Positions 32,436 to 54,247 of a DNA stretch of 64,000 nt are shown one piece after another (the stretch's first letter is position 1; each line of letters starts with the position of its first letter). Where the stretch lies: positions 6,998 through 70,997 of the forward strand of contig CAZARR010000003.1 in the NCBI GenBank assembly GCA_964487665.1, in the 5' to 3' direction. Both the position numbers and the translations under genes were made by a program. Below the pieces are notes generated by a model. It did no database searches. It had not been told where the DNA came from and saw nothing but the letters and a program-made list of their open reading frames with translations. Source of the stretch: an uncultured Pseudomonadales bacterium. GTDB taxonomy: Bacteria; Patescibacteriota; Microgenomatia; UBA1400; MFAQ01.

Positions 32436-33223
32436 ATGTTTCTGACTAGATCCGCCTCGACAATTAGGCGTTTGAGACGAGTTCCTGGCGGAACGCAGGT
32501 TATTAATTTCAATTTTTTGTGGTCGTAAATTTGTCGTAGTACCCAGGTGTCGCTTGGTTTGACTTGGTAAACTTTGGTCACTTTGTAGGTATAAGTGTTA
32601 TTGTTAAAATTTGTAAGAATAAGGTCGTCTAATTTTACGCTAGGGAGGTAAGTAAAGATGCTCATATAGTCATTCGGTTTGGTAAGCTGGGGAAGGGTCG
32701 AGTGTCCGAAAATAACTGTGTCGCCAAATCCCCCTGGGAGCGCAGTGCCAGGGAAGTGGACAAGACTTTTGCCCAGATCGTCGCCGTTGATTGTGACGAT
32801 TGCTAGATCAAGCTTGAGGCTAGGTACGCTAATGGTAAAGGTCTTGAGATCTGTGGGGGGAGGGTTGAGTTGTGAGATCGTAGTTGGTTCTGAAGGAGGA
32901 ATGTTTTTGGCGGCAAACCAGTTACTGGCCTTGGTAAAGTCGAGGTCGGAAACCACCTGAGGGCCGTTTTCGGTATCAAGTGAGGGGAATGATGACGCAT
33001 CGACGATTGGTGAAAGAAGTCCAACGCGGGCATATCGATCGGTTGTGGGTGAGTTGGATCTGTCAGTGAACTGATACTCGACGATCGGCCAAGTCACACT
33101 GGCAATAATTGCTAAGCCAAGAGCAGAAATTATTATAGGTAGTAACTTTAGATAAAGCGGGAGAATGTGTCCAGGATAAGGATTTTCTGGTGTGGCTTTT
33201 TGATATGCGTACGGTTCATACAT
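32432..33223 (-). CDS. Sortase-family transpeptidase (N-terminal TM anchor)
   Basis: Catalytic His in VIFGHSTLPQ, TLxTC-type Cys in KLITCVPPGT, conserved Arg in RLIVEADLVR. Confidence 0.8.
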   Translation of the reverse strand: MYEPYAYQKATPENPYPGHILPLYLKLLPIIISALGLAIIASVTWPIVEYQFTDRSNSPTTDRYARVGLLSPIVDASSFPSLDTENGPQVVSDLDFTKASNWFAAKNIPPSEPTTISQLNPPPTDLKTFTISVPSLKLDLAIVTINGDDLGKSLVHFPGTALPGGFGDTVIFGHSTLPQLTKPNDYMSIFTYLPSVKLDDLILTNFNNNTYTYKVTKVYQVKPSDTWVLRQIYDHKKLKLITCVPPGTRLKRLIVEADLVRNI

Positions 33224-35333
33224 TGGTTTGGTTAGAAACTATTATGATTTTTATCCTAGCGGGGTTTCTGGGGAGATATTGATTGAGAATTGGTAGACTG
33301 GGGGTAATTTTTACAACGATTGACGAAACTCCGCTGGTGTTGTCGAATAGGGAAGGAATTTTGCTTACCGATTTCCCGGCGAGAACCGAGGGATATTGGG
33401 CAACATTAATATCCGGAACTAATTGCCCTTGGACGGCGGCTGAGGCTGTGTAGCTGTCATTGGTGATCTTTTTTATATCGTTTAATACGATAGTAGTTGA
33501 GGTCGGATCAAGTTTTTTTTGACTGTATTTGCCAGACACAATTTGTTTGGTTAAGTTGTTTATCAAATTCTCTGGGGAATAAACCAAGACTGGTACAGAA
33601 GCGGATAAGTTGAGAGAAAGTTCGTCTGACGCCTCGGATATTTTGGCAGAAAACTTTTTGGTGGTAATCTTGATATCTCCCGAGACACTTTTTGACTCGT
33701 TGTCATTTGAGGTAGATTCGCTATTTACTTTGGTGCTGACCTCTGCGAGCGCTTGTTCTTCGAGAGACTTGATGTCTCTATCAGAAACAGCTTTGACTGT
33801 TTTTGAAGATCCGCCGGAGAAATCCTTGTCGCAAATGGCAATTAGTGTGCTTTTTGGATATTTATCGACAGAAAATTGGGTGTCTTTGGGGAGGTTGCTC
33901 TCTGCGCCAATTTTGAGAGCGCTTACGGTAATTGCTGAACTACCAGGAGTGATAACAAAGGGTGGTTCAGGCTGGGAGGAGCTTGAGGCAATAAAAACTG
34001 AGTCGTCTAGGCTGAAGTCCTGGCCATTGCTGGCAGTAACTTTTGTTCCTGCTTTAAGTGCTATCAATTGACTTGAACGGTTGTAGATTGTGATCGTGCC
34101 CTTGGCTTTGTCGCCAACTACGGTTTCTCCCGTGGTGCTTATCTTTTTTTCCACATTTACGGTTAGAGTTTCTTCGCGAAGAATAGCTGAGCCGGCCTGA
34201 TCTTTGGAGAGATTAACAGTGACTGTTTGTTCGAGACTTTCTGGTTTGGTCTTGATGGTAATTTCTGCCCGAACAAGAGATTGGTAGAAAAGGAATAGAA
34301 TAGCAGGAATTATTGGCACGCCAATAAGGAAAAAATATTTAAGTGAAAGTTGAGGAAGACGAAGCCTAGGAAGAGACAGGCTAGGAATAAGCCTATGTTT
34401 AAGTGATGTTTGGGGTTCGGGTTGGTGAATAACAAGAGGTGTTGGAGGCAAAGGAGGTGTGGAATCGATTTCCGGCGATTTATTTTCCGATTCGACTTCG
34501 AACCCAAGGTCTTTGAGGGTTGCCTCGTTTACCGGAGTGACATCAGAAGAGGCGATTGTGCCATCTTCTGTTGTTGGGGTAGTGACAACATCTAGCCCAA
34601 GAGATTTGGCAGCTTCAGTGCCACCACATAGGGCAATAGCCTTGATGGAAAAATCACTATCAAGAACTTCAACCTTGGGAAGATGTAAAAAGTTGAGTTT
34701 TTCTAACCATGGATAAGAGATAATCTGTTGGCGTTCATTGTCTAAGTTGGAACCATTTGTCAAGATGAAACGGACAGGGAGGCGGTCGGCTCCAATGCGA
34801 ACCAGGGCCTCTTCTACGTCCTTGGCCAGGTCATCGGAACGACCCACCTCTTCTTGTCTTTCCACCTGTCCAACCCTAATTAGCGATACTACGGCTCGGG
34901 TGGGGTAAATTTCAATAAGAATAGCAGTGGGAGGAATACCATCCTGTTTTTTGAGCTGCTGGACAATAGCTTCGGTGATCGTTACCAAGCCAATGGGCTT
35001 GAGGTTAAGATCGTTGATAATCTTTTTGATCTGTGAACTGTAGTCAGTGGAAATTTTGTCACCATCGAGCCAAGACTCGGGTAGTCCAAGGATAACCCGG
35101 TCTGGTTCGCTGCCTAAGGTCTTGACTGCGTTGGTAAGTGAAATGTCTACACCATTGACCAAGGACTCGCTATCTTCCCAGGCTTCGTATGAACCGACAG
35201 CGATAATTTCCGGCTGGTTGTCTACAACTTTCCAAGAAGCTGTTTTTACTAAAGAGTCATGAATTTCTAGAGCTAAGAAAAACTCCTCGGTCTGAGTGGG
35301 GCTGTCTTTTTTAAATAGGCGTTTTATCTCCAT
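33216..35333 (-). CDS. Hypothetical bitopic membrane protein. N-terminal cytoplasmic domain has weak actin-like (FtsA/PilM/GspL-cyto-like) resemblance; single TM; Ser/Thr-rich beta-rich extracytoplasmic C-terminal domain
   Basis: 705 aa. Degenerate phosphate-1-like LALEIHDSLVK. TM YFFLIGVPIIPAILFLFYQSLV at about residue 335. No LPXTG. The domain assignment is tentative. Confidence 0.35.
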   Translation of the reverse strand: MEIKRLFKKDSPTQTEEFFLALEIHDSLVKTASWKVVDNQPEIIAVGSYEAWEDSESLVNGVDISLTNAVKTLGSEPDRVILGLPESWLDGDKISTDYSSQIKKIINDLNLKPIGLVTITEAIVQQLKKQDGIPPTAILIEIYPTRAVVSLIRVGQVERQEEVGRSDDLAKDVEEALVRIGADRLPVRFILTNGSNLDNERQQIISYPWLEKLNFLHLPKVEVLDSDFSIKAIALCGGTEAAKSLGLDVVTTPTTEDGTIASSDVTPVNEATLKDLGFEVESENKSPEIDSTPPLPPTPLVIHQPEPQTSLKHRLIPSLSLPRLRLPQLSLKYFFLIGVPIIPAILFLFYQSLVRAEITIKTKPESLEQTVTVNLSKDQAGSAILREETLTVNVEKKISTTGETVVGDKAKGTITIYNRSSQLIALKAGTKVTASNGQDFSLDDSVFIASSSSQPEPPFVITPGSSAITVSALKIGAESNLPKDTQFSVDKYPKSTLIAICDKDFSGGSSKTVKAVSDRDIKSLEEQALAEVSTKVNSESTSNDNESKSVSGDIKITTKKFSAKISEASDELSLNLSASVPVLVYSPENLINNLTKQIVSGKYSQKKLDPTSTTIVLNDIKKITNDSYTASAAVQGQLVPDINVAQYPSVLAGKSVSKIPSLFDNTSGVSSIVVKITPSLPILNQYLPRNPARIKIIIVSNQTNV

Positions 35334-41341: not shown

Positions 41342-42988
41342 TTAGACCTCAATAACCATGGCTATAATCAGTGGCCTTCTGTTAGTTGCATCATATAGAA
41401 ATTTTTCTAATACATTTTCGATCTTGTGACGTAAAAAATTCCAGTCAGTGACTTTTGTATGTTGTCCATGGAGACAGTCAACCACTTTGTCTTCTGCCGA
41501 TTTGATTAGATCCTGGGATTCTTTGACATAAACAAACCCTCTAGTGACAATTTCTGGGTGACCAGAGACCTGACCATTATCTTTGTTAACAGGAACGATC
41601 GCCAAAAGGATGCCATCTTCAGCCATAACTTGCCTGTCTCGTAACACTACGTTGCCCACATCTCCGATACCTAGGCCGTCAACATAAACATTTTTTGTAA
41701 TAATTTTGTCAACAACTTTTACTTCATGTCGGGAAATTCCCAATACTTGTCCATCATCCAGGATATGGACGCGATCTTTGTCATAACCCATTTCAGTCGC
41801 CAAATCCCGATAAAGGTGGAGGTGGCGAATGGCGCCGCCGATGGGGACTATATGGCGGGGCCGGACCAGACGAGCCAAGAGGGTTAGATCGCCGCGGTGG
41901 CCGTGACCAGAGACATGCAACCCTGGTGTTGAGCCGGAATAGGAAACCTGGATTTCCTGCCTGTAAAGAGTGTCAATAAGGCCAAAAACATCCGACTCAG
42001 TCCCTGGAATAGCATCGGCGCTAATAACCACGTGATCGCCGCTATGTAGTTGAACGAACTGGTGTTCACCAGCGGCAAGTCTTTGCATGGCGGAACCTTC
42101 TTGTCCTTGGGATCCAGCAACTATCAAGGTGATCTGGTTTGGCTTGTAGTGACGAACTTTTTTGGCATCGACTATCGACTCCGGGGGTAGATTGAGGAAA
42201 CCATGTTTGGCAGCGGCGAGACAATTGTTGGAGATGGAACGGCCAATAAGAGCGACTTTGCGGTTGTATTTGAGTGAAGCGTCGATTGCCATGCCTATAC
42301 GGGAAATCGATGATGAGATTGTGGTAAAAATGAATTTACCCTTGGTCATCTTGACTGCGTTGTCGACGGCAGCCAACAGTGTTCTTTCGGTGGGGGTAAA
42401 ACCAGGTGATTCGACTCGAAGAGAATCGGTAAGTAGTAAGTCAACACCTTCGTCTCCGGCTTTGGCCATACTAGAAAGATCTGAGGGGTTGTTGTCGATA
42501 GGAGTGAGATCGAACTTGAAGTCGGCTGCGTGATAGATGTTGGCAACTGGGGTTTTGATAAACAAATGTTTACAGTTGGGAATGGAGTGGGTGCTGTGTA
42601 TGAGTTTGATATCAAATGAACCAAGGTTTATGTGGTCTTCAACGGGAATTAGCTTGTTTGTGAGACCAAATTCACGTACTTTTTGCTCCGCAAGTGCAAT
42701 AGTCAGAGTCGAACCATAAATATCAACCTTGGGAAGTCGGGGCAAAATGTATGGTAGTCCGCCAATGTGGTCCATGTGACCATGGGTAAGGACAATCCCT
42801 AAAATATTTTTGTGTGTTTTCTCGAGGTAGGAGATGTCGGGGATGACTACATCGACCCCTAAGGCGGCATCGGATGGAAAGCCAATGCCACAGTCGACGA
42901 TTAGCTGTTCGTCGCCGTATTCGTAAACATACATATTTTTGGTAACATCACCAATGCCTCCCAGAGGGATAAGTTTTAGTTGTTTCAT
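41342..42988 (-). CDS. rnj: Ribonuclease J (metallo-beta-lactamase / beta-CASP)
   Basis: HGHMDHIGG motif; beta-CASP region; 548 aa. Confidence 0.85.
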   Translation of the reverse strand: MKQLKLIPLGGIGDVTKNMYVYEYGDEQLIVDCGIGFPSDAALGVDVVIPDISYLEKTHKNILGIVLTHGHMDHIGGLPYILPRLPKVDIYGSTLTIALAEQKVREFGLTNKLIPVEDHINLGSFDIKLIHSTHSIPNCKHLFIKTPVANIYHAADFKFDLTPIDNNPSDLSSMAKAGDEGVDLLLTDSLRVESPGFTPTERTLLAAVDNAVKMTKGKFIFTTISSSISRIGMAIDASLKYNRKVALIGRSISNNCLAAAKHGFLNLPPESIVDAKKVRHYKPNQITLIVAGSQGQEGSAMQRLAAGEHQFVQLHSGDHVVISADAIPGTESDVFGLIDTLYRQEIQVSYSGSTPGLHVSGHGHRGDLTLLARLVRPRHIVPIGGAIRHLHLYRDLATEMGYDKDRVHILDDGQVLGISRHEVKVVDKIITKNVYVDGLGIGDVGNVVLRDRQVMAEDGILLAIVPVNKDNGQVSGHPEIVTRGFVYVKESQDLIKSAEDKVVDCLHGQHTKVTDWNFLRHKIENVLEKFLYDATNRRPLIIAMVIEV

Positions 42989-42997
42989 ATTTTTTTA

Positions 42998-44065
42998 TTA
43001 AGTCATTAAATGTTCTTTTGGTAAATAAGTTTTGAGGTTATCGGCGACAATATTAACGGAGGCGGCTTGACCTGAAACGATAGTACTGGCAGCCTTTCTG
43101 GTAAGGCCTTCGATGGTGCGATTTAGGGTACGGAGTCCGGCATCAAAGCCGAATGGGCGGACGATTTGAGGCCAGAGGCTGTCGCTGATGGTTAGAGAAA
43201 GAGGGTTAAGGCCAGATTCCTTAATGGCCTTGGGGAGTAGATACTCCTTGGCAATGTGAATTTTCTCTTCATCGGTGTAGCTAGGCATGCGGAGTGGTTC
43301 CAGACGATCCATGACAGCAGTGGCAATATTTCCTGTATTATTGGCCGTGGCGATAAATAACGCTTCGGACAAGTCAAAAGGATAATCGACATAATGATCT
43401 AGGAACCGATTGTTTTGACTTGGATCCAAAACCTCTACGAGAACACCCATAATGTCGGCCTTGGCTTCGGAGGTGACCCTGTCTATTTCATCGAGAAGAA
43501 TAATGGGGTTTTTCACCCCTGAGTCGCGGAATGCGCGAATGATGAGGCCGGGCTCAGATTCTAGGTGTAGTCTAGATTGTCCACGTAAGTCCCGGGCGGA
43601 TCCCATGCCACCAAAAGGGATCCTGGTAATTGGACGTCCCAAAGCTTCGGATAGGGCATAGGCAAAAGTAGTTTTGCCGGTACCCACAAGGCCGACAAGC
43701 AAGACGGCTGGGGCTTTGGCAGTGCCCGATCCTTGTTGTAGGCGTAGTTTGTACACAGACATGTATTCGATAATGCGATCTTTTACTTCTTCCATGCCAT
43801 AGTGATGTTTGTCTAATGTTTGCCGGATAGACACTAGATCGATAGGTTTTTCAACGCGTTTGTCCCAAGGCAGGGAGGTGATCCAATCAATATAATGGCT
43901 GATTTTTTCGAATTCTTCGGAGTAAAACCCTTGATTGGCCATACGTTCAAGGCGGTCGATCGACGTGTTCGTTTTTTGAGCTAGATCGGTGGGTAAGGCA
44001 CACGAGGAAACCCGGTCGTGCAAGGCGACAAGATCCTTTTGGACTAAACTAAGAGACGTATCCAT
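42998..44065 (-). CDS. Lon-type AAA+ ATPase module without the N-terminal substrate domain and without the protease domain
   Basis: Lon pre-AAA helix (DKHHYGMEEVKDRIIEYMSVYKL), Walker A GLVGTGKTT, Walker B ILLDEIDRV, sensor and lid. The ORF ends at the AAA/protease boundary, 10 nt before rnj. Confidence 0.75.
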   Translation of the reverse strand: MDTSLSLVQKDLVALHDRVSSCALPTDLAQKTNTSIDRLERMANQGFYSEEFEKISHYIDWITSLPWDKRVEKPIDLVSIRQTLDKHHYGMEEVKDRIIEYMSVYKLRLQQGSGTAKAPAVLLVGLVGTGKTTFAYALSEALGRPITRIPFGGMGSARDLRGQSRLHLESEPGLIIRAFRDSGVKNPIILLDEIDRVTSEAKADIMGVLVEVLDPSQNNRFLDHYVDYPFDLSEALFIATANNTGNIATAVMDRLEPLRMPSYTDEEKIHIAKEYLLPKAIKESGLNPLSLTISDSLWPQIVRPFGFDAGLRTLNRTIEGLTRKAASTIVSGQAASVNIVADNLKTYLPKEHLMT

Positions 44066-44078
44066 TGATTAAAGTATA

Positions 44079-46262
44079 TCAGCGGTGGTCCCGGAATCGC
44101 TTGAAGACCTGAGGTTTACCCGGTGACGAGGGAGCGGGTCTATTGGATTGATAGGAAGATTGGTGTTGTGGTGAATCAGAGGAGGGTGTCCGGCCACCGG
44201 ACAACAGGCTGAGATTAAGCCGGCCACGATCGTCGATCTCATCAGCCCGCACTGTGACGGTATCGCCGACACTGACCACCTGGCTAGCGTCAGAAACATA
44301 TACCCCTTTACCCATGCGCGAAACGTGCACCAAACCAGACTTTCCTGGCAAAACATCAACAAAAGCGCCAAAACTTTCGACGCGAGTAACAGTGCCTTCG
44401 TATGTTTTTCCAATCTCTGCCTCAGTAACTAGACCTGAGATGTGGTTTTTGGCTTTTTCAACTTGATTGGGGTCGTTCCCAGTGATACTAACCTTCCCGC
44501 TATCGTCTATGTCGATTTCGACCGTATAGGTTTGTTGTAACAAGCGGATCATCCGACCGCCTGGCCCAATAATTTCACCAATTTTCTCGCTATCAATTTT
44601 CAGGGTGGCGATGTTGGGGGCATACTGACTGAGACTTGGGCGGGGCTTGTCGATAACAGCAAGCATTTTACTAAGGATAAAAAGACGACCTTGGCGGGCT
44701 TGCTCTAAGGCTTGTTCAAGTATTTTGGCGGTAACACCAGGAACTTTTATATCCATCTGCATAGCCGTAACACCATCAGCGGTTCCGGCGACTTTGAAGT
44801 CCATGTCTCCGTAGTGGTCTTCGGGGCCAGCTATGTCGCTGAGGGTAATGTATTTACCAGCTTCGCTAATAAGACCCATTGCAATACCAGCTACAGGTTT
44901 TTTAATAGGTACACCTGCATCCATGAGAGATAAGGTTGAACCACAGACAGAAGCTTGGGAGGTGCTACCATTGCCAGACATGATTTCAGAAACGATACGA
45001 ATGGTATAGGGGAAGATATCTTCGTCTGGAATGACCGGAAGTAGGGCTTTTTCTGCTAGGGCTCCGTGTCCAGTTTCGCGACGATTGGGCGTGCCAATAC
45101 GTCCTGGTTCACCGGTGGCATAACCCGGCATGTTGTAATGATGCATATAACGCTTGGTTTCTTCACCGTTCATACCCTCGATCAGTTGTTCTTGCGAAGG
45201 CGAACCAAGGGTGACAACCGACAAAGCGTGTGTCAGCCCCCGTTTAAATAATGCCGATCCGTGGGTTCGGGGCAAAAGACCAATAGCAATTTCAATGTCT
45301 CGAATTTCGTCGAATTTGCGACCATCTATTCTGATAGAACGTGTCAGTATACTGGAGCGGAAGTGTTCTCTAATTTTGTCGTCAATCAAACGCGCGATTT
45401 GATTTTTGTCAACATCGGGGTTATCGGCGAGAATAGCGGTGACGACGTGGTCATATTTGATTCCTTCTCCGCTGGCAGCCTTGGCATCGGAAAGCAACTT
45501 GGGGGCATCGAGATATTTATCAATCAGTTTTTTCTGTTCGGGTGTAACCTTGGCGGGATTGACGCTTTTTTTGGTCTTGGAAATTTCCTGAGAAAATTCA
45601 TCAATGGCATCGACAATTGTGTCAATGTGTTTTTGGGCAAATTGCATTGCAGATAGAATTTTGTCTTCGGTCACTTCTTTTGCACCAGCTTCCACCATGG
45701 CAATTGAACCCTTGGCTCCTGAAACAACCAAATGTAAGGAGGAGGCTTCGTCCTGCGAGAGGCCTGGATTGATGAGAAATTGATTATTTTGATCAAGACC
45801 AACCAAGGCAGCACCGACGGGACCGGACCATGGAATATCGGAGATGGTCAGAGCGGCAGAGGTGGCGATTAAACCTAGAATGGCGGGGTCTGTTTGCCCA
45901 TCAATAGACAGCGGAGTAACCACCACTTGAACAGTATCGAAATAGTTTTTTGGGAATAGCGGGCGGATTGAACGATCAATCAGGCGTGAGGTAAGGATCT
46001 CTCGGTCGGAAGGCCTACCTTCGCGCTTTATAAATCGCGATGAACTAATTACGCCTCCCGCATAATGACGTTCTCGATATTCCACTTGGAGAGGAAAGTA
46101 GTCTATTTCTTCGTCGGCTGGTCCGGAAACAACTGCGGCCAAAACGATTGTGTCACCACATCGGGCGGTGACGGCCCCATTGGCCTGTACAGCCAAAACA
46201 CCTGTTTCTAAAATAATATCTTGTCCACCATCTAATTGGATGGTGTGCGTGTGTACTGACAT
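44079..46262 (-). CDS. pnp: Polyribonucleotide nucleotidyltransferase (PNPase)
   Basis: Two RNase PH domains plus KH and S1 (GKTYEGTVTRVESFGAFVDVLPGKSGLVHVS); 727 aa. Confidence 0.95.
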   Translation of the reverse strand: MSVHTHTIQLDGGQDIILETGVLAVQANGAVTARCGDTIVLAAVVSGPADEEIDYFPLQVEYRERHYAGGVISSSRFIKREGRPSDREILTSRLIDRSIRPLFPKNYFDTVQVVVTPLSIDGQTDPAILGLIATSAALTISDIPWSGPVGAALVGLDQNNQFLINPGLSQDEASSLHLVVSGAKGSIAMVEAGAKEVTEDKILSAMQFAQKHIDTIVDAIDEFSQEISKTKKSVNPAKVTPEQKKLIDKYLDAPKLLSDAKAASGEGIKYDHVVTAILADNPDVDKNQIARLIDDKIREHFRSSILTRSIRIDGRKFDEIRDIEIAIGLLPRTHGSALFKRGLTHALSVVTLGSPSQEQLIEGMNGEETKRYMHHYNMPGYATGEPGRIGTPNRRETGHGALAEKALLPVIPDEDIFPYTIRIVSEIMSGNGSTSQASVCGSTLSLMDAGVPIKKPVAGIAMGLISEAGKYITLSDIAGPEDHYGDMDFKVAGTADGVTAMQMDIKVPGVTAKILEQALEQARQGRLFILSKMLAVIDKPRPSLSQYAPNIATLKIDSEKIGEIIGPGGRMIRLLQQTYTVEIDIDDSGKVSITGNDPNQVEKAKNHISGLVTEAEIGKTYEGTVTRVESFGAFVDVLPGKSGLVHVSRMGKGVYVSDASQVVSVGDTVTVRADEIDDRGRLNLSLLSGGRTPSSDSPQHQSSYQSNRPAPSSPGKPQVFKRFRDHR

Positions 46263-46643: not shown

Positions 46644-47528
46644 TTATACATTACCGGGGATGGTAGGTTTTCCTGACCTGAAAACCTTTGGCTTTTGCCA
46701 ATCGTTGGGAATCTTGGAGCCTTTTGTTTTGTGATTAAGTGGTGGCAGGTCCATTAGGGACCCGGGGAAATTTAGCATGGGTGAGGTAGGGGTAGCAGGG
46801 AACTCGCGTCTGGCGCCATTGCGCATCAAATAGGCCGTGGCTTCGAAAGTATCGGCGGTTACTTTGAAAGAAGAAAAATTCTGGGTAATTTGGGTTAGAC
46901 AGTTGAACATGTTTGAAGAGGCTTGAGCTGTAGGGGGGATATTAAGGCTTTTCAAAATTATGGTAATAATTTCGCTTAGACAAGTGGCTTTTTCGGAATG
47001 TAGCGAGATCTTGGCAAAGCTACTTGGTGAACTTGTTTGGTTAAAACTGACAATCTTGGCAGCGTCGAAGAAATTCTTTTCTTCAGAATAAAGCCGTCCC
47101 AGCTCTTCAAGGGTTTTTATGCCCAGGACGAAAACCATATCGGCCTCGGCACCGGTATACTTGAAGGTTACCTTGTCGGAGGTGGGCGGAGTTTCGCCTG
47201 TACGAGGTTTGATGATTAACTTGGCTTTGCCGTCATCTGTTTTTTCATAGTCAATTTTCTCTAATTTGTCCTCAGGGTAATCAAATACGATAACAAGATT
47301 CTTGTTGCCAATTGATGTTTGAATTTTTTCTATACCAGCAAGACCATCTTTGACGTCACTGAGTCGGCTACAGCCGATTTGAGCTTGTTTTGTGTTTTGT
47401 AAGCTTTGATATAAGGCTAGACCAGCAGCGGTGGTATCCTGATCTGGTTCGGGGGGGAGGACAATAACGACTGATTTGGCTGCGTCCAGATCACTTTTAA
47501 GGGAATCGAGAAGGTTTTGGTCAAACAT
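46644..47528 (-). CDS. DHH-family (NrnA-like) protein with degenerate catalytic motifs
   Basis: The N-terminal VVIVLPPEPDQDTTAAGLALYQSL mimics DHH motifs I/II but lacks the canonical Asp/His residues. DHH motif III is replaced by DYP. Lies between infB and rpsO. Confidence 0.45.
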   Translation of the reverse strand: MFDQNLLDSLKSDLDAAKSVVIVLPPEPDQDTTAAGLALYQSLQNTKQAQIGCSRLSDVKDGLAGIEKIQTSIGNKNLVIVFDYPEDKLEKIDYEKTDDGKAKLIIKPRTGETPPTSDKVTFKYTGAEADMVFVLGIKTLEELGRLYSEEKNFFDAAKIVSFNQTSSPSSFAKISLHSEKATCLSEIITIILKSLNIPPTAQASSNMFNCLTQITQNFSSFKVTADTFEATAYLMRNGARREFPATPTSPMLNFPGSLMDLPPLNHKTKGSKIPNDWQKPKVFRSGKPTIPGNV

Positions 47529-50194: not shown

Positions 50195-50219
50195 CAAATA
50201 AAAAGGTGGCCTAGCCACC
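50195..50219 (-). terminator. Rho-independent terminator after dnaJ
   Basis: Minus-strand RNA GGUGGC-UAG-GCCACC (50205-50219) followed by UUUUUAUUUG (50195-50204). Confidence 0.55.
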
Positions 50220-50264
50220 CTATTCACTCTTAACTCCCAGCTTGAATTATAACACTTTGGCGGA

Positions 50265-51125
50265 TTAATTTTGATCGAATTGTTCCAACAATTGCTTTTG
50301 GCGGTTGGAAATACGAGTGGGTAGTTTGATGATTAGGCGGATGTAGAAATCTCCGCGCCGGTGTGAGTGGACATCTTTGGCACCAACACCAGAAAGCCTG
50401 ATAACGGTACCCGGCTGGGTTCCTGGGCGAACCTTAATTTTCAAATCATCTTTATCGAGCGTTCTGACTCGAATATCTGTTCCCAGTATGGCCAAGCTAA
50501 AGGGTAGTTCGTAATCTACGTAGATATCATTTCCGTCTCGTTTAAAATAGGGGTCCGGTAAGACATCAACGCTTACATCGAATTGGTCATAACGGATGCG
50601 GGTGCCATTGTCAGACCCTGCCGGGATTTTGATGGTGTGTTGACGGCCCTGGTGGACAATTGTCCGGGAAACCCCGCGAATAGCGTCAAGAAAATCGATT
50701 TTTAGACTATAGTGGGGTTTGGCCGGGCGGCCTCCCATTCGGCCACCAAAAAAACTTTCAAAAATTTCGAAAGGGTCTGAGAATCCACCGAACATGTCGG
50801 CAAAATCCCCTGGGGAGCCGGTAGAGGTGTAATAAGTGTAGTTGAATGGTCCAGTCCGACCAGGAGCTCCTGAGCTGGCAAATGGTCCACCGCTGGCGGG
50901 GTCAAAGGCTGCGTGGCCAAATTGGTCGTAAGCCTGTTTTTTATCGGGATTTGAAAGAACCTCGTAGGCTTCGTTGATTTCCTTAAACTTATCCTCAGCA
51001 TCGGGGGCTTTGTTGCGGTCAGGGTGAAACTGCAAGGCCATCTTGCGGTAAGCCGACTTGATTTCGGTAGCCGAAGAGTTCTTGGTGACACCCAAAATAT
51101 CATAATAATCCCGCTTGGTGGACAT
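50265..51125 (-). CDS. dnaJ: DnaJ-family co-chaperone, type II (J domain + G/F region + C-terminal domains, no CxxCxGxG zinc finger)
   Basis: J domain DYYDILGV ... HPDRN; G/F-rich linker; 286 aa. Confidence 0.85.
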
Positions 51126-53056
51126 TACTCAACCACCGTGCCTTCCTCGACAGTACCGGCGTCTTTCTCAGACTTCTTGTCTTTGCTGGAGGCGTCCTTT
51201 TGCTGATCTTCTTTTGGGGTTGCTTGTTCGTCTGCAGCTGGGGTGGTGGGTTGAGCAGCCTTGTAAAGAGCCTCGGAGTGTTTTTGGGCAATATCTATTG
51301 CCTTTTTCATCTTGGTATCGATTGAGTCGAGGGTGGCGCTATCTTTTTTAGTTTCGTCTTCGAGCTCGGTGAGGGCTTTTTCTATTTCGTCTTTGGCTCC
51401 ACTGTCAAACTTATCACCAGCGTCCTTGATCGTTTTGCGGGTTGAACCGATAAAAGCATCTGCTTCATTACGTTTGTCAACGAATGCTTTGCGTTTTTCA
51501 TCAGCTTCTTTGTTGGCCTCTGCCTCTTTGCGCAATCGCTCGACCTCATCTTCGCTCAAATTGGTGGCATTCTTTATGGTAATTTTTTGGACTTTATCGG
51601 TAGCCTTGTCTTTGGCCGAAACGTTAAGGATGCCGTTTGAGTCAATATCAAAAGTGACTTCAATTTGAGGTACACCACGGGATGCTGGGGGAATCCCATC
51701 GAGAATAAAACGTCCGAGCGACTTGTTGTCTGTGGCCATGGGACGCTCGCCCTGGAGAACGTTGATTTCCACCTGGGGCTGGTTGTCCGAGGCCGTGGAA
51801 AACACCTGAGATTTGTTGGTGGGAATTGTAGTGTTGCGCTCTATCAAAGGAGTCATCACACCGCCGAGGGTTTCTAACCCCAAAGTCAGGGGGGTGACAT
51901 CCAACAAAAGGACATCTTTAACATCTCCGGCTAAGACTCCACCTTGAATGGCGGCTCCTAAGGCGACAACTTCGTCAGGATTGATACCCTTGTGGGGCTC
52001 TTTGCCAAAAAATTCTTTGACCACAGATGAGACCATGGGCATTCTGGTCATTCCACCAACCAAGACAACCTCATCGATCTTGGTGACGTCAATTTTGGCA
52101 TCCTTAAGAGCCTGTTTGACTGGATCAAGTGTTTTTTGAACCAAATCTTTGACAAGGTCTTCTAGCTTGGCTCGAGTAAGTTTCAGGTTTAGGTGCAGAG
52201 GCTGCCCGTCACTTCCCTGAGAGATAAAGGGTTGGTTAATCTCAGTTTCGGTGGCACTAGAAAGCTCAATCTTGGCTTTTTCAGCAGCGTCTTTGATGCG
52301 TTGAAGAGCCTGCTTGTCTTTGCCTAGGTCGATACCATTTTCTTTTTTAAACTCCGCAAGGATATACTCGATGATTCTTTCGTCGAAGTCATCACCTCCC
52401 AGAAAGGTGTCGCCATTGGTGGATTTGACCTCGAAAAGACCATCGCCAAGTTCGAGGATCGAGATATCAAAGGTGCCACCACCCAGATCATAAACGGCGA
52501 TAGTTTCGCTTTTGCCTTTGTCCAAACCATAAGCTAGGGCAGCGGCTGTTGGTTCGTTGATAATACGCTTGACTTCGAGCCCGGCAATTTGGCCCGCTTG
52601 TTTGGTCGCTTGGCGTTGTGAATCGTCGAAATAGGCCGGAACGGTAATAACTGCTTCCGTCACGGTCTGGCCTAAATAACTTTCGGCGTCTGTCTTGGCT
52701 TTTTGAAGTATTTTGGCGCTAATTTCCTGGGGAGTATAGGTTTTGTCCCCGATTTTGACTGCGGCAGATTGGTCAGAACTTTTAACGATATTATAGGGAA
52801 CAAGTTTTTTAGTTTTTTCAACTTGCGGATCATCGAATCGTCGACCCATGAGACGCTTGACGGAATAGATGGAGGTTTCGGGGTTTAAAATCATTTGCCG
52901 CTTGGCCACGTCCCCAACTAGATTTTTTAGGGGGGAAACAATCGAAGGAAAGGTGTTTCTTCCTTCAGCGGTGGGGATAATTTTGGCAGTGCCACCTTCC
53001 ATGACGGCAACTGCGCTGTTAGTGGTTCCTAGATCGATACCGATGATTTTTGTCAT
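51125..53056 (-). CDS. dnaK: Chaperone DnaK (Hsp70)
   Basis: [18 protein letters not shown], Hsp70 substrate-binding domain; 643 aa. Confidence 0.95.
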
Positions 53057-53080
53057 ATTGTTTGATTAAAAAATAATAAT

Positions 53081-53518
53081 TTAATTGGTAGCGCCAGCGA
53101 TTTTTCCCCGACCAACTTTGACACCGGCGGGGCGGATAAGTTTACCGTTGTGGTAACGGTAACCTCGCGAGATGGTTTCGATGACTTTGTTTTTTGGCCC
53201 GTCAACTGTTTCGAGACATTCCATGGAGCTTGGATCAAAATCCGAGTTAGTTGGCTCGAAGATTACAATGCCCTCTTCACTGAGCATTTTTTCGATACCA
53301 ACAATGATCTGATTGAGGCCTTGGTCGTGAAGATGTGTCTGGGCTCGGATGAGGTCATCAACCACCGGGAGCAGTTTCTCGATGAGGACCTCGTTGGCAA
53401 AGCGGATGATGTTGATTCTATCTACCTCGAACCGTTTTTGTAAATTTTGATAGTCCGCCAGGGCGCGTTTGTACTTTTCTTCATATTGGTCGGTATGGGA
53501 GTGTGGTTTGGTGGTCAT
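53081..53518 (-). CDS. grpE: Nucleotide exchange factor GrpE
   Basis: GrpE coiled-coil plus beta domain; position between hrcA and dnaK. Confidence 0.85.
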   Translation of the reverse strand: MTTKPHSHTDQYEEKYKRALADYQNLQKRFEVDRINIIRFANEVLIEKLLPVVDDLIRAQTHLHDQGLNQIIVGIEKMLSEEGIVIFEPTNSDFDPSSMECLETVDGPKNKVIETISRGYRYHNGKLIRPAGVKVGRGKIAGATN

Positions 53519-53524
53519 GAATGA

Positions 53525-54247
53525 TTATTCGGAGGCTATTTGATTAACTAAGTTGGCAATATAGCGAAGCATGGGTATATTGTGATTGTATGTCTGCCGA
53601 GAGGGAGCAATCAGACCTAATCGGCCGCGTTTATCACCCACTTGAATATCCGCGTACAGACAACTGACATCCGCCAAATTATCGTAACCCAATTCTGCAC
53701 CCACTAAAAGATGGATAGGGTCGTTGCCGAAACCACGGTTGAACATTTCCCAGATAGAGCCATAGTGGTCAATAATCATAAATACTTGACGAGTGGCTTG
53801 CAGGTTTAAAAATTCCTGAAACTCAAGCAAATAAGGGTAGCCGTGGTGGTATAGGTGTGAGTCTTCAAGAACAGCAATGGATAACGATCTGGTTCTATCA
53901 GCCAGTATTCTGGTGGCTTCCTGAAGTAAACTTTCAGAGTCGCGGCGGTTTTCCCAAACTTTTTCTTTGACGACGATCTCCTCGGCTACGGACAGGCCCC
54001 GTTCTTGCATTAATTCGTTGACATAGAGCTTGATAGCCATAGGAGTGGGGACACGGCCGGCTGAAGAATGGGGCTGTCGAAGGTAGCCTTTGGATTCCAA
54101 ATCGGCCATTTCGTTTCGCAGTGTAGCGGGCGAAACTCCCAGGCGATATTTTTGCTCGAGGGTGACACTGCCGACGGGGTCAGCAGTGGCTGTATATTCG
54201 TCAACGATGGCCTTTATGATGGCGATTTGGCGCGAGGTTAAATCCAT
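53525..54247 (-). CDS. hrcA: Heat-inducible transcription repressor HrcA (short form)
   Basis: N-terminal winged-helix (LTSRQIAIIKAIVDEYTATADPVGS); first gene of the hrcA-grpE-dnaK-dnaJ block. Confidence 0.8.
   Translation of the reverse strand: MDLTSRQIAIIKAIVDEYTATADPVGSVTLEQKYRLGVSPATLRNEMADLESKGYLRQPHSSAGRVPTPMAIKLYVNELMQERGLSVAEEIVVKEKVWENRRDSESLLQEATRILADRTRSLSIAVLEDSHLYHHGYPYLLEFQEFLNLQATRQVFMIIDHYGSIWEMFNRGFGNDPIHLLVGAELGYDNLADVSCLYADIQVGDKRGRLGLIAPSRQTYNHNIPMLRYIANLVNQIASE

Follow-up and report, generated by a model that had tools for sequence, protein, structure and literature searches.

A protease-less LonA-type AAA+ ATPase conserved in Microgenomates: a putative stand-alone protein remodeller encoded between pnp and rnj

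The locus

The 64,000-nucleotide stretch of DNA analysed here, termed the window, is part of contig CAZARR010000003.1 (GenBank assembly GCA_964487665.1, positions 6,998 to 70,997) from a member of the Patescibacteriota (GTDB lineage Microgenomatia, UBA1400, MFAQ01) deposited as an uncultured Pseudomonadales bacterium. Between the genes for PNPase (pnp) and RNase J (rnj), the window carries a Lon-type open reading frame of 355 amino acids (42998..44065, minus strand) with an ATG start and a tandem TAA-TAA stop. A preliminary description, made from the letters of the sequence alone, regarded it as the AAA+ module of Lon standing alone, without the N-domain and without the protease domain, and Pfam, the TIGR00763 profile, phmmer and AlphaFold2 with Foldseek all bear this out. 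That description is to be corrected in one small point, in that the gene lies on the minus strand. The features of the gene are as follows; residue numbers are those of the 355-amino-acid protein, with E. coli Lon numbers in parentheses where noted.

42998..44065, minus strand: protease-less LonA-type AAA+ ATPase gene, 355 amino acids (open reading frame, Pfam, Protein Data Bank (PDB) matches, AlphaFold2/Foldseek, dN/dS)
43856..44065, minus strand: residues 1-70, end of the LonA long helix and three-helix bundle (NTD-3H), aligning to about 252-305 of the E. coli, Y. pestis and B. subtilis Lons
43280..43855, minus strand: residues 71-262, AAA+ alpha/beta (nucleotide-binding) subdomain (Pfam AAA at 121-256, motif coordinates)
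43667..43693, minus strand: Walker A GLVGTGKTT (K131), the clade form of LonA GPPGVGKTS; G, G, G, K and T 100% conserved in 170 members
43547..43585, minus strand: pore-loop-1 segment RGQSRLHLESEPG, with His167 for LonA Tyr398 and Glu169 for Gly400 (family alignment)
43481..43504, minus strand: Walker B IILLDEID (D192, E193); D and E 100% conserved
43445..43480, minus strand: pore-loop-2 segment RVTSEAKADIMG, with LonA Gly434 changed to Ala/Met and position 432 to Ala (family alignment)
43391..43429, minus strand: LDPSQNNRFLDHY, the LonA-type LDPxQN...DHY segment before sensor-1, retained (family alignment)
43340..43342, minus strand: sensor-1 Asn242 (E. coli N473), 100% conserved
43304..43306, minus strand: arginine finger Arg254 (E. 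coli R484), 100% conserved
43016..43279, minus strand: residues 263-350, Lon-type alpha-helical lid (Pfam Lon_lid at 282-333; PDB entries 1qzm, 1x37 and 4git match residues 260-350)
43130-43132, minus strand: sensor-2 Arg312 (E. coli R542), 100% conserved
43001..43039, minus strand: C-terminal end NLKTYLPKEHLMT, atypical for the family (C-terminus comparison; low predicted local distance difference test score, pLDDT)

Domain content and predicted structure

Pfam assigns an AAA domain (residues 121-256) and a Lon_lid domain (282-333) to the protein and nothing else; there is no Pfam match to the S16 Ser-Lys protease domain (PF05362) or to the LAN N-domain (PF02190). Alignment to LonA begins at about residue 252 of the latter, and the protein stops five residues past the last lid residue that can be aligned. 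The NCBIfam lon model TIGR00763 is covered over model positions 256-571 of 795 and scores 308 bits against a cut-off of 608, and NF008053 scores 245 against a cut-off of 891. None of the curated NCBIfam models matches the protein above its own cut-off.

A phmmer search of the PDB gave LonA chains at E = 6e-73, with residues 10-350 of the query corresponding to about 252-580 of E. coli Lon. Identity to the LonA module is about 37-42% over the full 355 amino acids. The peptide DKHHYGMEEVKDRIIEYM, quoted in the preliminary description, is located at residues 85-102. The AlphaFold2 model, based on 65 sequences, has a pLDDT of 92.8 and a predicted template modelling score (pTM) of 0.87. In Foldseek comparisons the model superposes on the AAA+ modules of LonA and LONP1 with TMq values of 0.8-0.88; it also covers nearly the whole of 6n2i, an AAA+-only crystal fragment of E. 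coli Lon (residues 235-584), with a TMt of 0.89.

Model helices at residues 2-21, 26-42 and 48-64 form the amino-terminal region, in which E51, Y58, P66 and W67 are invariant both in the protease-less family and in LonA. In LonA, this three-helix bundle is positioned above the pore. From its amino to its carboxyl end, the protein comprises the last part of the long N-domain helix, then the three-helix bundle and the alpha/beta domain, and finally the lid. The similarity to Lon had been thought to start at the helix preceding the AAA+ core; the alignment to Lon stands, but more is kept than was supposed, as the end of the long helix and the whole of the three-helix bundle (about residues 1-70) are present.

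A frameshift or split gene concealing a downstream protease domain was considered and ruled out. There is no room for such a domain because the spacer before rnj is 9 nucleotides and rnj is complete, with RNase J Pfam models matching from residue 14 to the end. The frameshift test was negative, in agreement with the original view that the protease domain is not a downstream split fragment. A LonB identity was also rejected: the best matches are all LonA, and the alignment is continuous, without a transmembrane insertion in the AAA+ domain. As to membership of a BREX (BrxL) or other defence system, PADLOC returned weak generic AAA matches (21-26 bits) and no BrxL, and this candidate was dropped.

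Residues kept and residues altered

Residue conservation was surveyed in 170 protease-less members, made up of 118 close homologues, 41 sequences from divergent loci and 11 distant forms, and compared with 63 full-length LonAs. In E. coli numbering, Walker A G356, G359, G361, K362 and T363, Walker B D423 and E424, sensor-1 N473, the trans-acting arginine finger R484 and sensor-2 R542 are 100% conserved in the 170 members, as they are in LonA. These are the residues needed for ATP binding, for hydrolysis and for coupling between subunits in the ring. The catalytic ATPase residues of HCLR-clade AAA+ proteins are all intact, and the earlier suggestion of a Lon pseudo-enzyme is thereby wrong as regards the ATPase.

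Conservation of the trans-acting arginine finger implies an oligomeric active site and ring assembly. The LDPxQN...DHY segment before sensor-1 is also retained: D445, P446, N449, F452 and D454 are conserved in the protease-less family and in LonA, and its functional label is presumably the one that LonA structures suggest. Together, the arginine finger and the LDPxQN segment point to a protein that would hydrolyse ATP as a hexameric ring.

The pore loops, on the other hand, are rewritten. In pore-loop 1, the LonA sequence R395-R-T-Y398-[V/I]-G400, with Tyr in 63/63 LonAs, is replaced in the close family by S-R-L-H-L-E, with His in 118/118. At the Tyr398 position, the divergent Microgenomates loci have His in 24, Phe in 14 and Tyr in 3, and the deepest forms have Phe, Ser, Asn or His; the position of Gly400 is nearly always acidic (Glu/Asp) in the protease-less family. 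Pore-loop 2 has lost the invariant LonA Gly434, and position 432, which is Phe, Tyr or His in 42/63 LonAs, is changed as well. The change of Tyr to His and Gly to Glu suggests that polypeptides would not be threaded in the manner of LonA.

In total there are 25 clade-specific substitutions, clustered at the Walker A flank and at 381-400, 427-443, 478-485 and 535-541. Those at Walker A, where GPPGVGKTS becomes GLVGTGKTT, include P357L, P358V and S364T. The protease-less module is also more acidic, with a mean isoelectric point (pI) of 5.95 vs 7.24 for the equivalent region of LonA.

The carboxyl terminus of the family mostly reads ...[FY][LM]P[KQ][WY]-COOH. The last residue is Trp in 80, Tyr in 36 and Lys in 23 of about 159 members, such that a terminal aromatic [WYF] is found in about 75%; the pattern is not that of an HbYX motif. 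This ending may serve in docking or simply in packing. In the window protein, an outlier in this respect, the sequence ends in ...YLPKEHLMT, without a terminal aromatic.

Distribution, phylogeny and selection

The best 120 database homologues are 64-74% identical to the window protein, are nearly all 351-375 amino acids long and have AAA/Lon_lid domains only; those with a name are proteins of Collierbacteria or Patescibacteria. In all, more than 120 close homologues have the truncated form. When one genome per GTDB species was scanned, 80 species loci were obtained at 54-72% identity, with open reading frames of about 350-375 amino acids ending at the lid. They belong to Collier-, Woese-, Chisholm- and Cerribacteria and to metagenome-assembled genomes (MAGs) of the 'Microgenomates group'. 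The truncated form, initially seen in a single gene, is a conserved clade in related genomes of the candidate phyla radiation (CPR). The CPR origin guessed in the preliminary description is borne out by the Collierbacteria and Microgenomates names of the homologues. An exhaustive homologue search of 1.84 billion representatives added distant protease-less forms at 38-54% identity; ordinary full-length LonAs are 38-42% identical to the window protein.

In a neighbour-joining tree of 340 alignment columns, the 68/68 protease-less sequences sampled form one clade that excludes the 63 full-length LonAs, with 50/50 bootstraps. The AAA+ phylogeny that the preliminary description proposed has thus separated the protease-less proteins from LonA. 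As the protease-less forms are monophyletic, the domain loss is taken to be single and ancient. The closest full-length LonAs, where named, are from Clostridia, Negativicutes and Deinococcus, and not from CPR. Two candidates for CPR full-length Lons were examined and rejected: P0193 is high in G + C and non-CPR, and P0177 with its relatives is from Clostridia.

Among orthologues the median dN/dS is 0.056 (range 0.006-0.099, 247 pairs), and one pair has 98.8% amino-acid identity despite a dS of 1.57. These ratios indicate that selection on the protease-less family is very strong purifying selection.

The length variants do not alter the picture of a single module. Some distant members have N-terminal extensions rich in Pro, Gln, Ser and Thr; they are of low complexity and without Pfam matches, and were rejected as new domains. 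P0164, a Dojkabacteria protein of 548 amino acids, was rejected as an intermediate with a degenerate S16 domain, since its C-terminal 200 amino acids are a Ser/Asn-rich low-complexity tail. No fusion to other domains, those of rnj and pnp included, was found in the 120 closest homologues or at the loci. At locus L051 a TAA stop closes the Lon-like open reading frame after 353 amino acids, and the start of rnj is 3 nucleotides on.

The top-scoring multi-stretch matches of the representative search were rejected as relatives because they are tandem-AAA+ Lons that still have S16. Five of these (P0121, P0122, P0124, P0126 and P0131) are proteins of 1000-1700 amino acids in which two or three Lon-type AAA+ modules in tandem precede one S16 domain, and they scored above ordinary LonA in that search.

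Two observations concern the genomes themselves. The MAG JAHFKQ01 (Collierbacteria nzgw413) contains two distinct truncated-Lon copies, L019 and L042, on separate contigs and with 68% and 71% identity to the window protein; these are either a real paralogue pair or a mixture of two strains in the bin. Many records of GTDB-representative MAGs with the locus, among them those of L006, L009-L012, L037 and L081, bear the title 'uncultured Pseudomonadales bacterium', 'Spirochaetia bacterium' or 'Vitreimonas sp.' The loci are typical of Microgenomates, and the taxonomic names on the records seem to be placeholders or errors.

Search for a protease partner

The window and 88 loci, 1.47 Mb in all, were searched in six frames for a peptidase that might act with the ATPase. 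Hidden Markov models (HMMs) for S16 and the Lon N-domain were built from the 63 genuine LonAs, and positive controls were matched at 1e-56 to 1e-76. For tblastn, the S16 probe was taken from an E. coli Lon sequence, the length of which (784 amino acids) agrees. No S16 domain was found by HMM or tblastn in this 1.47 Mb, and no Lon N-domain was found in it by HMM.

ClpP, HslV and FtsH genes are absent from the 64-kb window, as judged by Pfam, and from the immediate neighbours inspected. The only peptidase in the window is Map, and at the loci examined no peptidase gene was found within about 10 kb of the Lon-like gene, the P0145 locus described below excepted. By Pfam, the rest of the window is a housekeeping core that includes ribosomal proteins, tuf, secY, secDF, relA/spoT, recJ, alaS and ftsK, with hrcA-dnaK-dnaJ, lepA, murJ and pilNO in addition; rpoB/rpoC and fusA were assigned from the size of their open reading frames only.

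One distant member differs in its surroundings. At the P0145 locus (L091, 8001-10191, on a 480-kb JGI contig), two M16 peptidase genes are followed by the protease-less Lon gene and, after a gap of 4 nucleotides, by an M23 peptidase gene. The genes pnp and rnj are not nearby.

Gene neighbourhood

In the window, the gene is flanked closely on both sides.

44079..46262, minus strand: pnp (PNPase, 727 amino acids), upstream, 13-nucleotide spacer (Pfam RNase_PH twice, KH, S1; junction sequence)
41342..42988, minus strand: rnj (RNase J, 548 amino acids), downstream, 9-nucleotide spacer (Pfam Lactamase_B, beta-CASP, RNase_J_C; junction sequence)

A scan for promoters and terminators between pnp, lon and rnj gave nothing convincing. 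The block nusA-infB-(unknown)-rpsO-pnp-lon-rnj-ftsK-HTH_25 recurs in Collierbacteria relatives and in deep branches, and the pnp-lon-rnj arrangement persists in the deep branches P0129 and P0271. Linkage was counted over the 80 species loci, using for each neighbour only those loci with enough flanking sequence.

rnj downstream on the same strand, within 300 nucleotides: 20/69 loci
rnj downstream on the same strand, within 3 kb: 50/61 loci
pnp upstream, within 300 nucleotides: 23/67 loci
pnp upstream, within 3 kb: 41/55 loci
ftsK within 8 kb: 43/50 loci
rpsO within 8 kb: 37/45 loci

The pnp-rnj neighbourhood originally noted therefore does recur as a block, but tight adjacency does not: pnp or rnj is immediately adjacent (within 300 nucleotides) in about 30% of species, inserted genes are frequent, and most species do not have the tight pnp-lon-rnj operon seen in the window. 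Because conservation of ftsK and rpsO is about as high, the linkage to pnp and rnj probably represents block synteny and not specific coupling, and the RNA-decay gene context is probably for the most part inherited gene order. Other contexts also exist. The gene follows dnaG-rpoD and precedes nrdR at L044, L047, L054, L060 and L052, follows sugar-metabolism genes at L077, L079, L081 and L085, and is beside alaS in P0147. In P0174 it lies between pnp and ftsK, and rnj is not nearby.

The verified gene order in E. coli is nusA-infB-rbfA-truB-rpsO-pnp-nlpI-deaD. The presence of both nlpI and deaD near pnp means that a gene for an RNA-decay ATPase can be a neighbour of pnp, and that an unrelated lipoprotein gene can be one too. 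We take it that B. subtilis and M. tuberculosis have the order nusA...rpsO-pnp...rnj...ftsK without lon, an assumption for which no citation was found in the case of the Firmicute order. If so, the block is older than the insertion of the Lon-like gene.

Several other features of the block were noted. A 294-amino-acid open reading frame between infB and rpsO (46644-47528, minus strand) has no Pfam match, but when 23 orthologues were combined in a profile, it matched DHH/DHHA1 phosphoesterases in the PDB (TM1595, NrnA, Rv2837c) at E = 8e-11. The canonical DHH motif seems to be missing from the family consensus. From the profile, the product may be a catalytically degenerate NrnA-like protein in the rbfA/nrnA slot of the nusA-infB operon, and its position agrees with the arrangement nusA-infB-rbfA-nrnA that we presume for mycobacteria. 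Directly before the Lon-like gene, the C-terminus of PNPase (44079-44210, minus strand) has a low-complexity Ser/Pro/Gln tail of about 45 amino acids past the S1 domain, with a basic KRFRDHR end.

On the same strand and directly upstream of nusA are hrcA, dnaK and dnaJ (50265-54247, minus strand), and the interval would also accommodate a small grpE. The best terminator-like hairpin of the region (50203-50221) lies between these heat-shock genes and nusA. The Lon-like gene is near the heat-shock operon and is probably not part of it. Farther off, a conserved open reading frame of about 705 amino acids lies between alaS and a sortase gene (33216-35333, minus strand, in the window; 17965-20076 in L001). 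It has no Pfam match in the window or in relatives.

Proposed function and alternatives

The architecture of the protein, its conservation, the intact ATPase residues, the monophyly of the family and the lack of an S16 domain in cis or nearby are direct observations. The reading favoured here, with a probability of roughly 55%, is that the gene encodes a functional AAA+ ATPase of LonA descent, which forms a ring, acts on its own and remodels proteins instead of degrading them. On this view, a LonA was stripped of its substrate-recognition (LAN) and protease (S16) domains in an ancestor belonging to the Microgenomates, and what remained was the three-helix bundle together with the nucleotide-binding domain and the lid. 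ATP would be bound and hydrolysed in an oligomeric ring, and its energy would drive the remodelling, unfolding or disassembly of particular protein substrates without degradation. The protease-independent 'chaperone' side of Lon would in this way have been made permanent. With the His/Glu pore loops, the processive grip of LonA type may have been given up, and the client set may be different or narrower. Oligomerisation, remodelling activity and class of substrate are what we infer here. Proteolytically inactive yeast Pim1 (Lon) is reported to keep a chaperone-like assembly activity. Among the possibilities raised in the preliminary description, a protease-independent unfoldase or chaperone fits best with the conserved ATPase and arginine-finger residues, the strong selection and the absence of S16 nearby.

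Some points weigh against a stand-alone remodeller. LonA hexamers are stabilised by the protease ring, which the 355-amino-acid protein lacks. The classical unfoldase aromatic of the pore loop is His here, and 'unfoldase' in the strict sense of threading may not apply. Finally, the C-terminal aromatic in about 75% of members could be a docking motif for a partner.

The gene context raises the possibility that the ring acts together with PNPase, RNase J or both in RNA decay, remodelling these enzymes or stripping proteins from ribonucleoproteins (RNPs). It would then fill the role that a DEAD-box helicase has in degradosomes, and would be a special case compatible with the stand-alone remodeller. 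In the window the genes are 13 and 9 nucleotides apart, with no space for a promoter or terminator; rnj and pnp are within 3 kb at 50/61 and 41/55 species loci; the deep branches P0129 and P0271 have the same arrangement, and the block also holds the divergent NrnA-like DHH protein. There is a precedent in E. coli, where the RNA helicase gene deaD is two genes downstream of pnp. The association with an RNA degradosome suggested at the outset is weaker than the window alone would suggest. Adjacency within 300 nucleotides is found at only 20/69 (rnj) and 23/67 (pnp) loci, ftsK (43/50) and rpsO (37/45) are kept about as often, some lineages have the gene after dnaG-rpoD, after sugar-metabolism genes or beside M16/M23 genes or alaS, P0174 has no rnj nearby, and fusions to rnj or pnp are not seen. 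In addition, the acidic protein (pI 5.95 vs 7.24) and the Glu in pore-loop 1 speak against direct threading of RNA, and a direct RNA translocase is disfavoured on these grounds. A role in RNA decay is therefore considered unlikely. A more specific form of it, in which the Lon-like ring is stacked on PNPase or RNase J as an ATP-driven machine degrading RNA or RNPs and the C-terminal aromatic is the docking tail, is highly doubtful. PNPase is a trimer, with six RNase-PH domains in a pseudo-hexameric ring that has a central channel, and the rewritten pore loops would suit the stripping of proteins from RNA. If true, this would be a 'Lon' with the protease chamber swapped for a nuclease chamber.

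Alternatively, the protein might be the ATPase half of a two-component protease, the peptidase (a stand-alone S16 'split Lon' or another) being encoded elsewhere. The intact ATPase and ring-signalling residues are consistent with this, the [FY][LM]P[KQ][WY]-COOH tail of about 75% of members could serve in docking, and P0145 is beside M16 and M23 peptidase genes. Yet no S16 was detected in the 1.47 Mb around 88 loci, nor ClpP, HslV or FtsH in the window, and the halves of a split gene would normally be expected to remain adjacent. The clade is old (down to 38% identity) and has no neighbouring peptidase apart from the M16/M23 genes of P0145. The pore-loop Tyr that a ring needs to translocate substrates into a protease chamber has been lost, the window protein and about 25% of members have no terminal aromatic, and the nearest full-length LonAs are those of Clostridia, Negativicutes and Deinococcus and not of CPR. 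This explanation is rather improbable. Lastly, the gene could be a pseudogene or decaying remnant, or a normal lon cut short by an error in sequencing or assembly, but nothing speaks for this except the truncation relative to LonA. Identical architecture across hundreds of independent assemblies, dN/dS of 0.006-0.099 with catalytic residues 100% conserved, intact flanking genes with 13- and 9-nucleotide spacers and a confident AlphaFold2 model make the chance of it practically negligible.

Comparison with known systems

The closest known counterpart is the NTD-3H and AAA+ module of LonA, as in the E. coli fragment 6n2i, with which the protein shares the three-helix bundle, the alpha/beta domain, the Lon-type lid and the Walker, sensor and arginine-finger residues. 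It differs from LonA (endopeptidase La, MEROPS S16) in that LAN and S16 are naturally absent, the pore loops are changed, there are 25 substitutions and the module is more acidic.

ClpX and HslU are also single HCLR-clade AAA+ modules encoded without a protease domain, and their genes commonly adjoin clpP or hslV. They have docking elements of their own (IGF loops, C-terminal tail), whereas none is proven in the protease-less Lon family. LonC, a Lon-like protease, has an ATPase domain that is degenerate and does not hydrolyse ATP. It is a mirror image of the present case: in LonC the protease is kept and the ATPase lost, and here the ATPase is kept and the protease lost.

For full-length Lon of the LONP1/Pim1 type, an ATP-dependent chaperone activity without peptide-bond cleavage has been described (PMC5998145). 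The Pim1 active-site mutant and the LONP1 chaperone may, by analogy, serve as a working model for the protein described here, as no cleavage is needed. These proteins are full-length, however, and their protease domain is still a structural ring, a domain that the protease-less family does not have.

The DEAD-box helicases of RNA decay, such as E. coli deaD, resemble the present gene in that an ATPase gene is co-located with pnp and/or rnj. In H. pylori, the DEAD-box helicase RhpA is linked with RNase J (PMC3592473). The helicases have the superfamily 2 (SF2) RecA-like fold, in contrast to the AAA+ fold of the present protein, in which both the protein as a whole and the pore loop are acidic.

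Significance

Full-text literature searches did not find a description of a protease-less Lon in CPR. NCBI records of the family are entitled 'AAA family ATPase' or 'Lon protease', IMG has 'ATP-dependent Lon protease', and several GenBank and UniRef entries are named likewise; the proteins cannot be proteases, and the names with 'protease' are mis-annotations. Because it lacks the S16 domain, the LAN domain and the pore-loop Tyr and falls below the cut-offs of the full-length models, the protein should not be named Lon protease.

Among single-chain AAA+ proteases Lon is the archetype, and what share of its role is chaperone-like as opposed to proteolytic is an old question. The family described here represents a natural experiment in which the Lon motor alone has been kept, under strong selection, across a whole class of reduced-genome bacteria. 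It provides a system for asking what a Lon motor does on its own, how it is assembled when there is no protease ring, and what a pore loop with His and Glu grips, and it has a bearing on protein quality control in the ultra-small genomes of the CPR.

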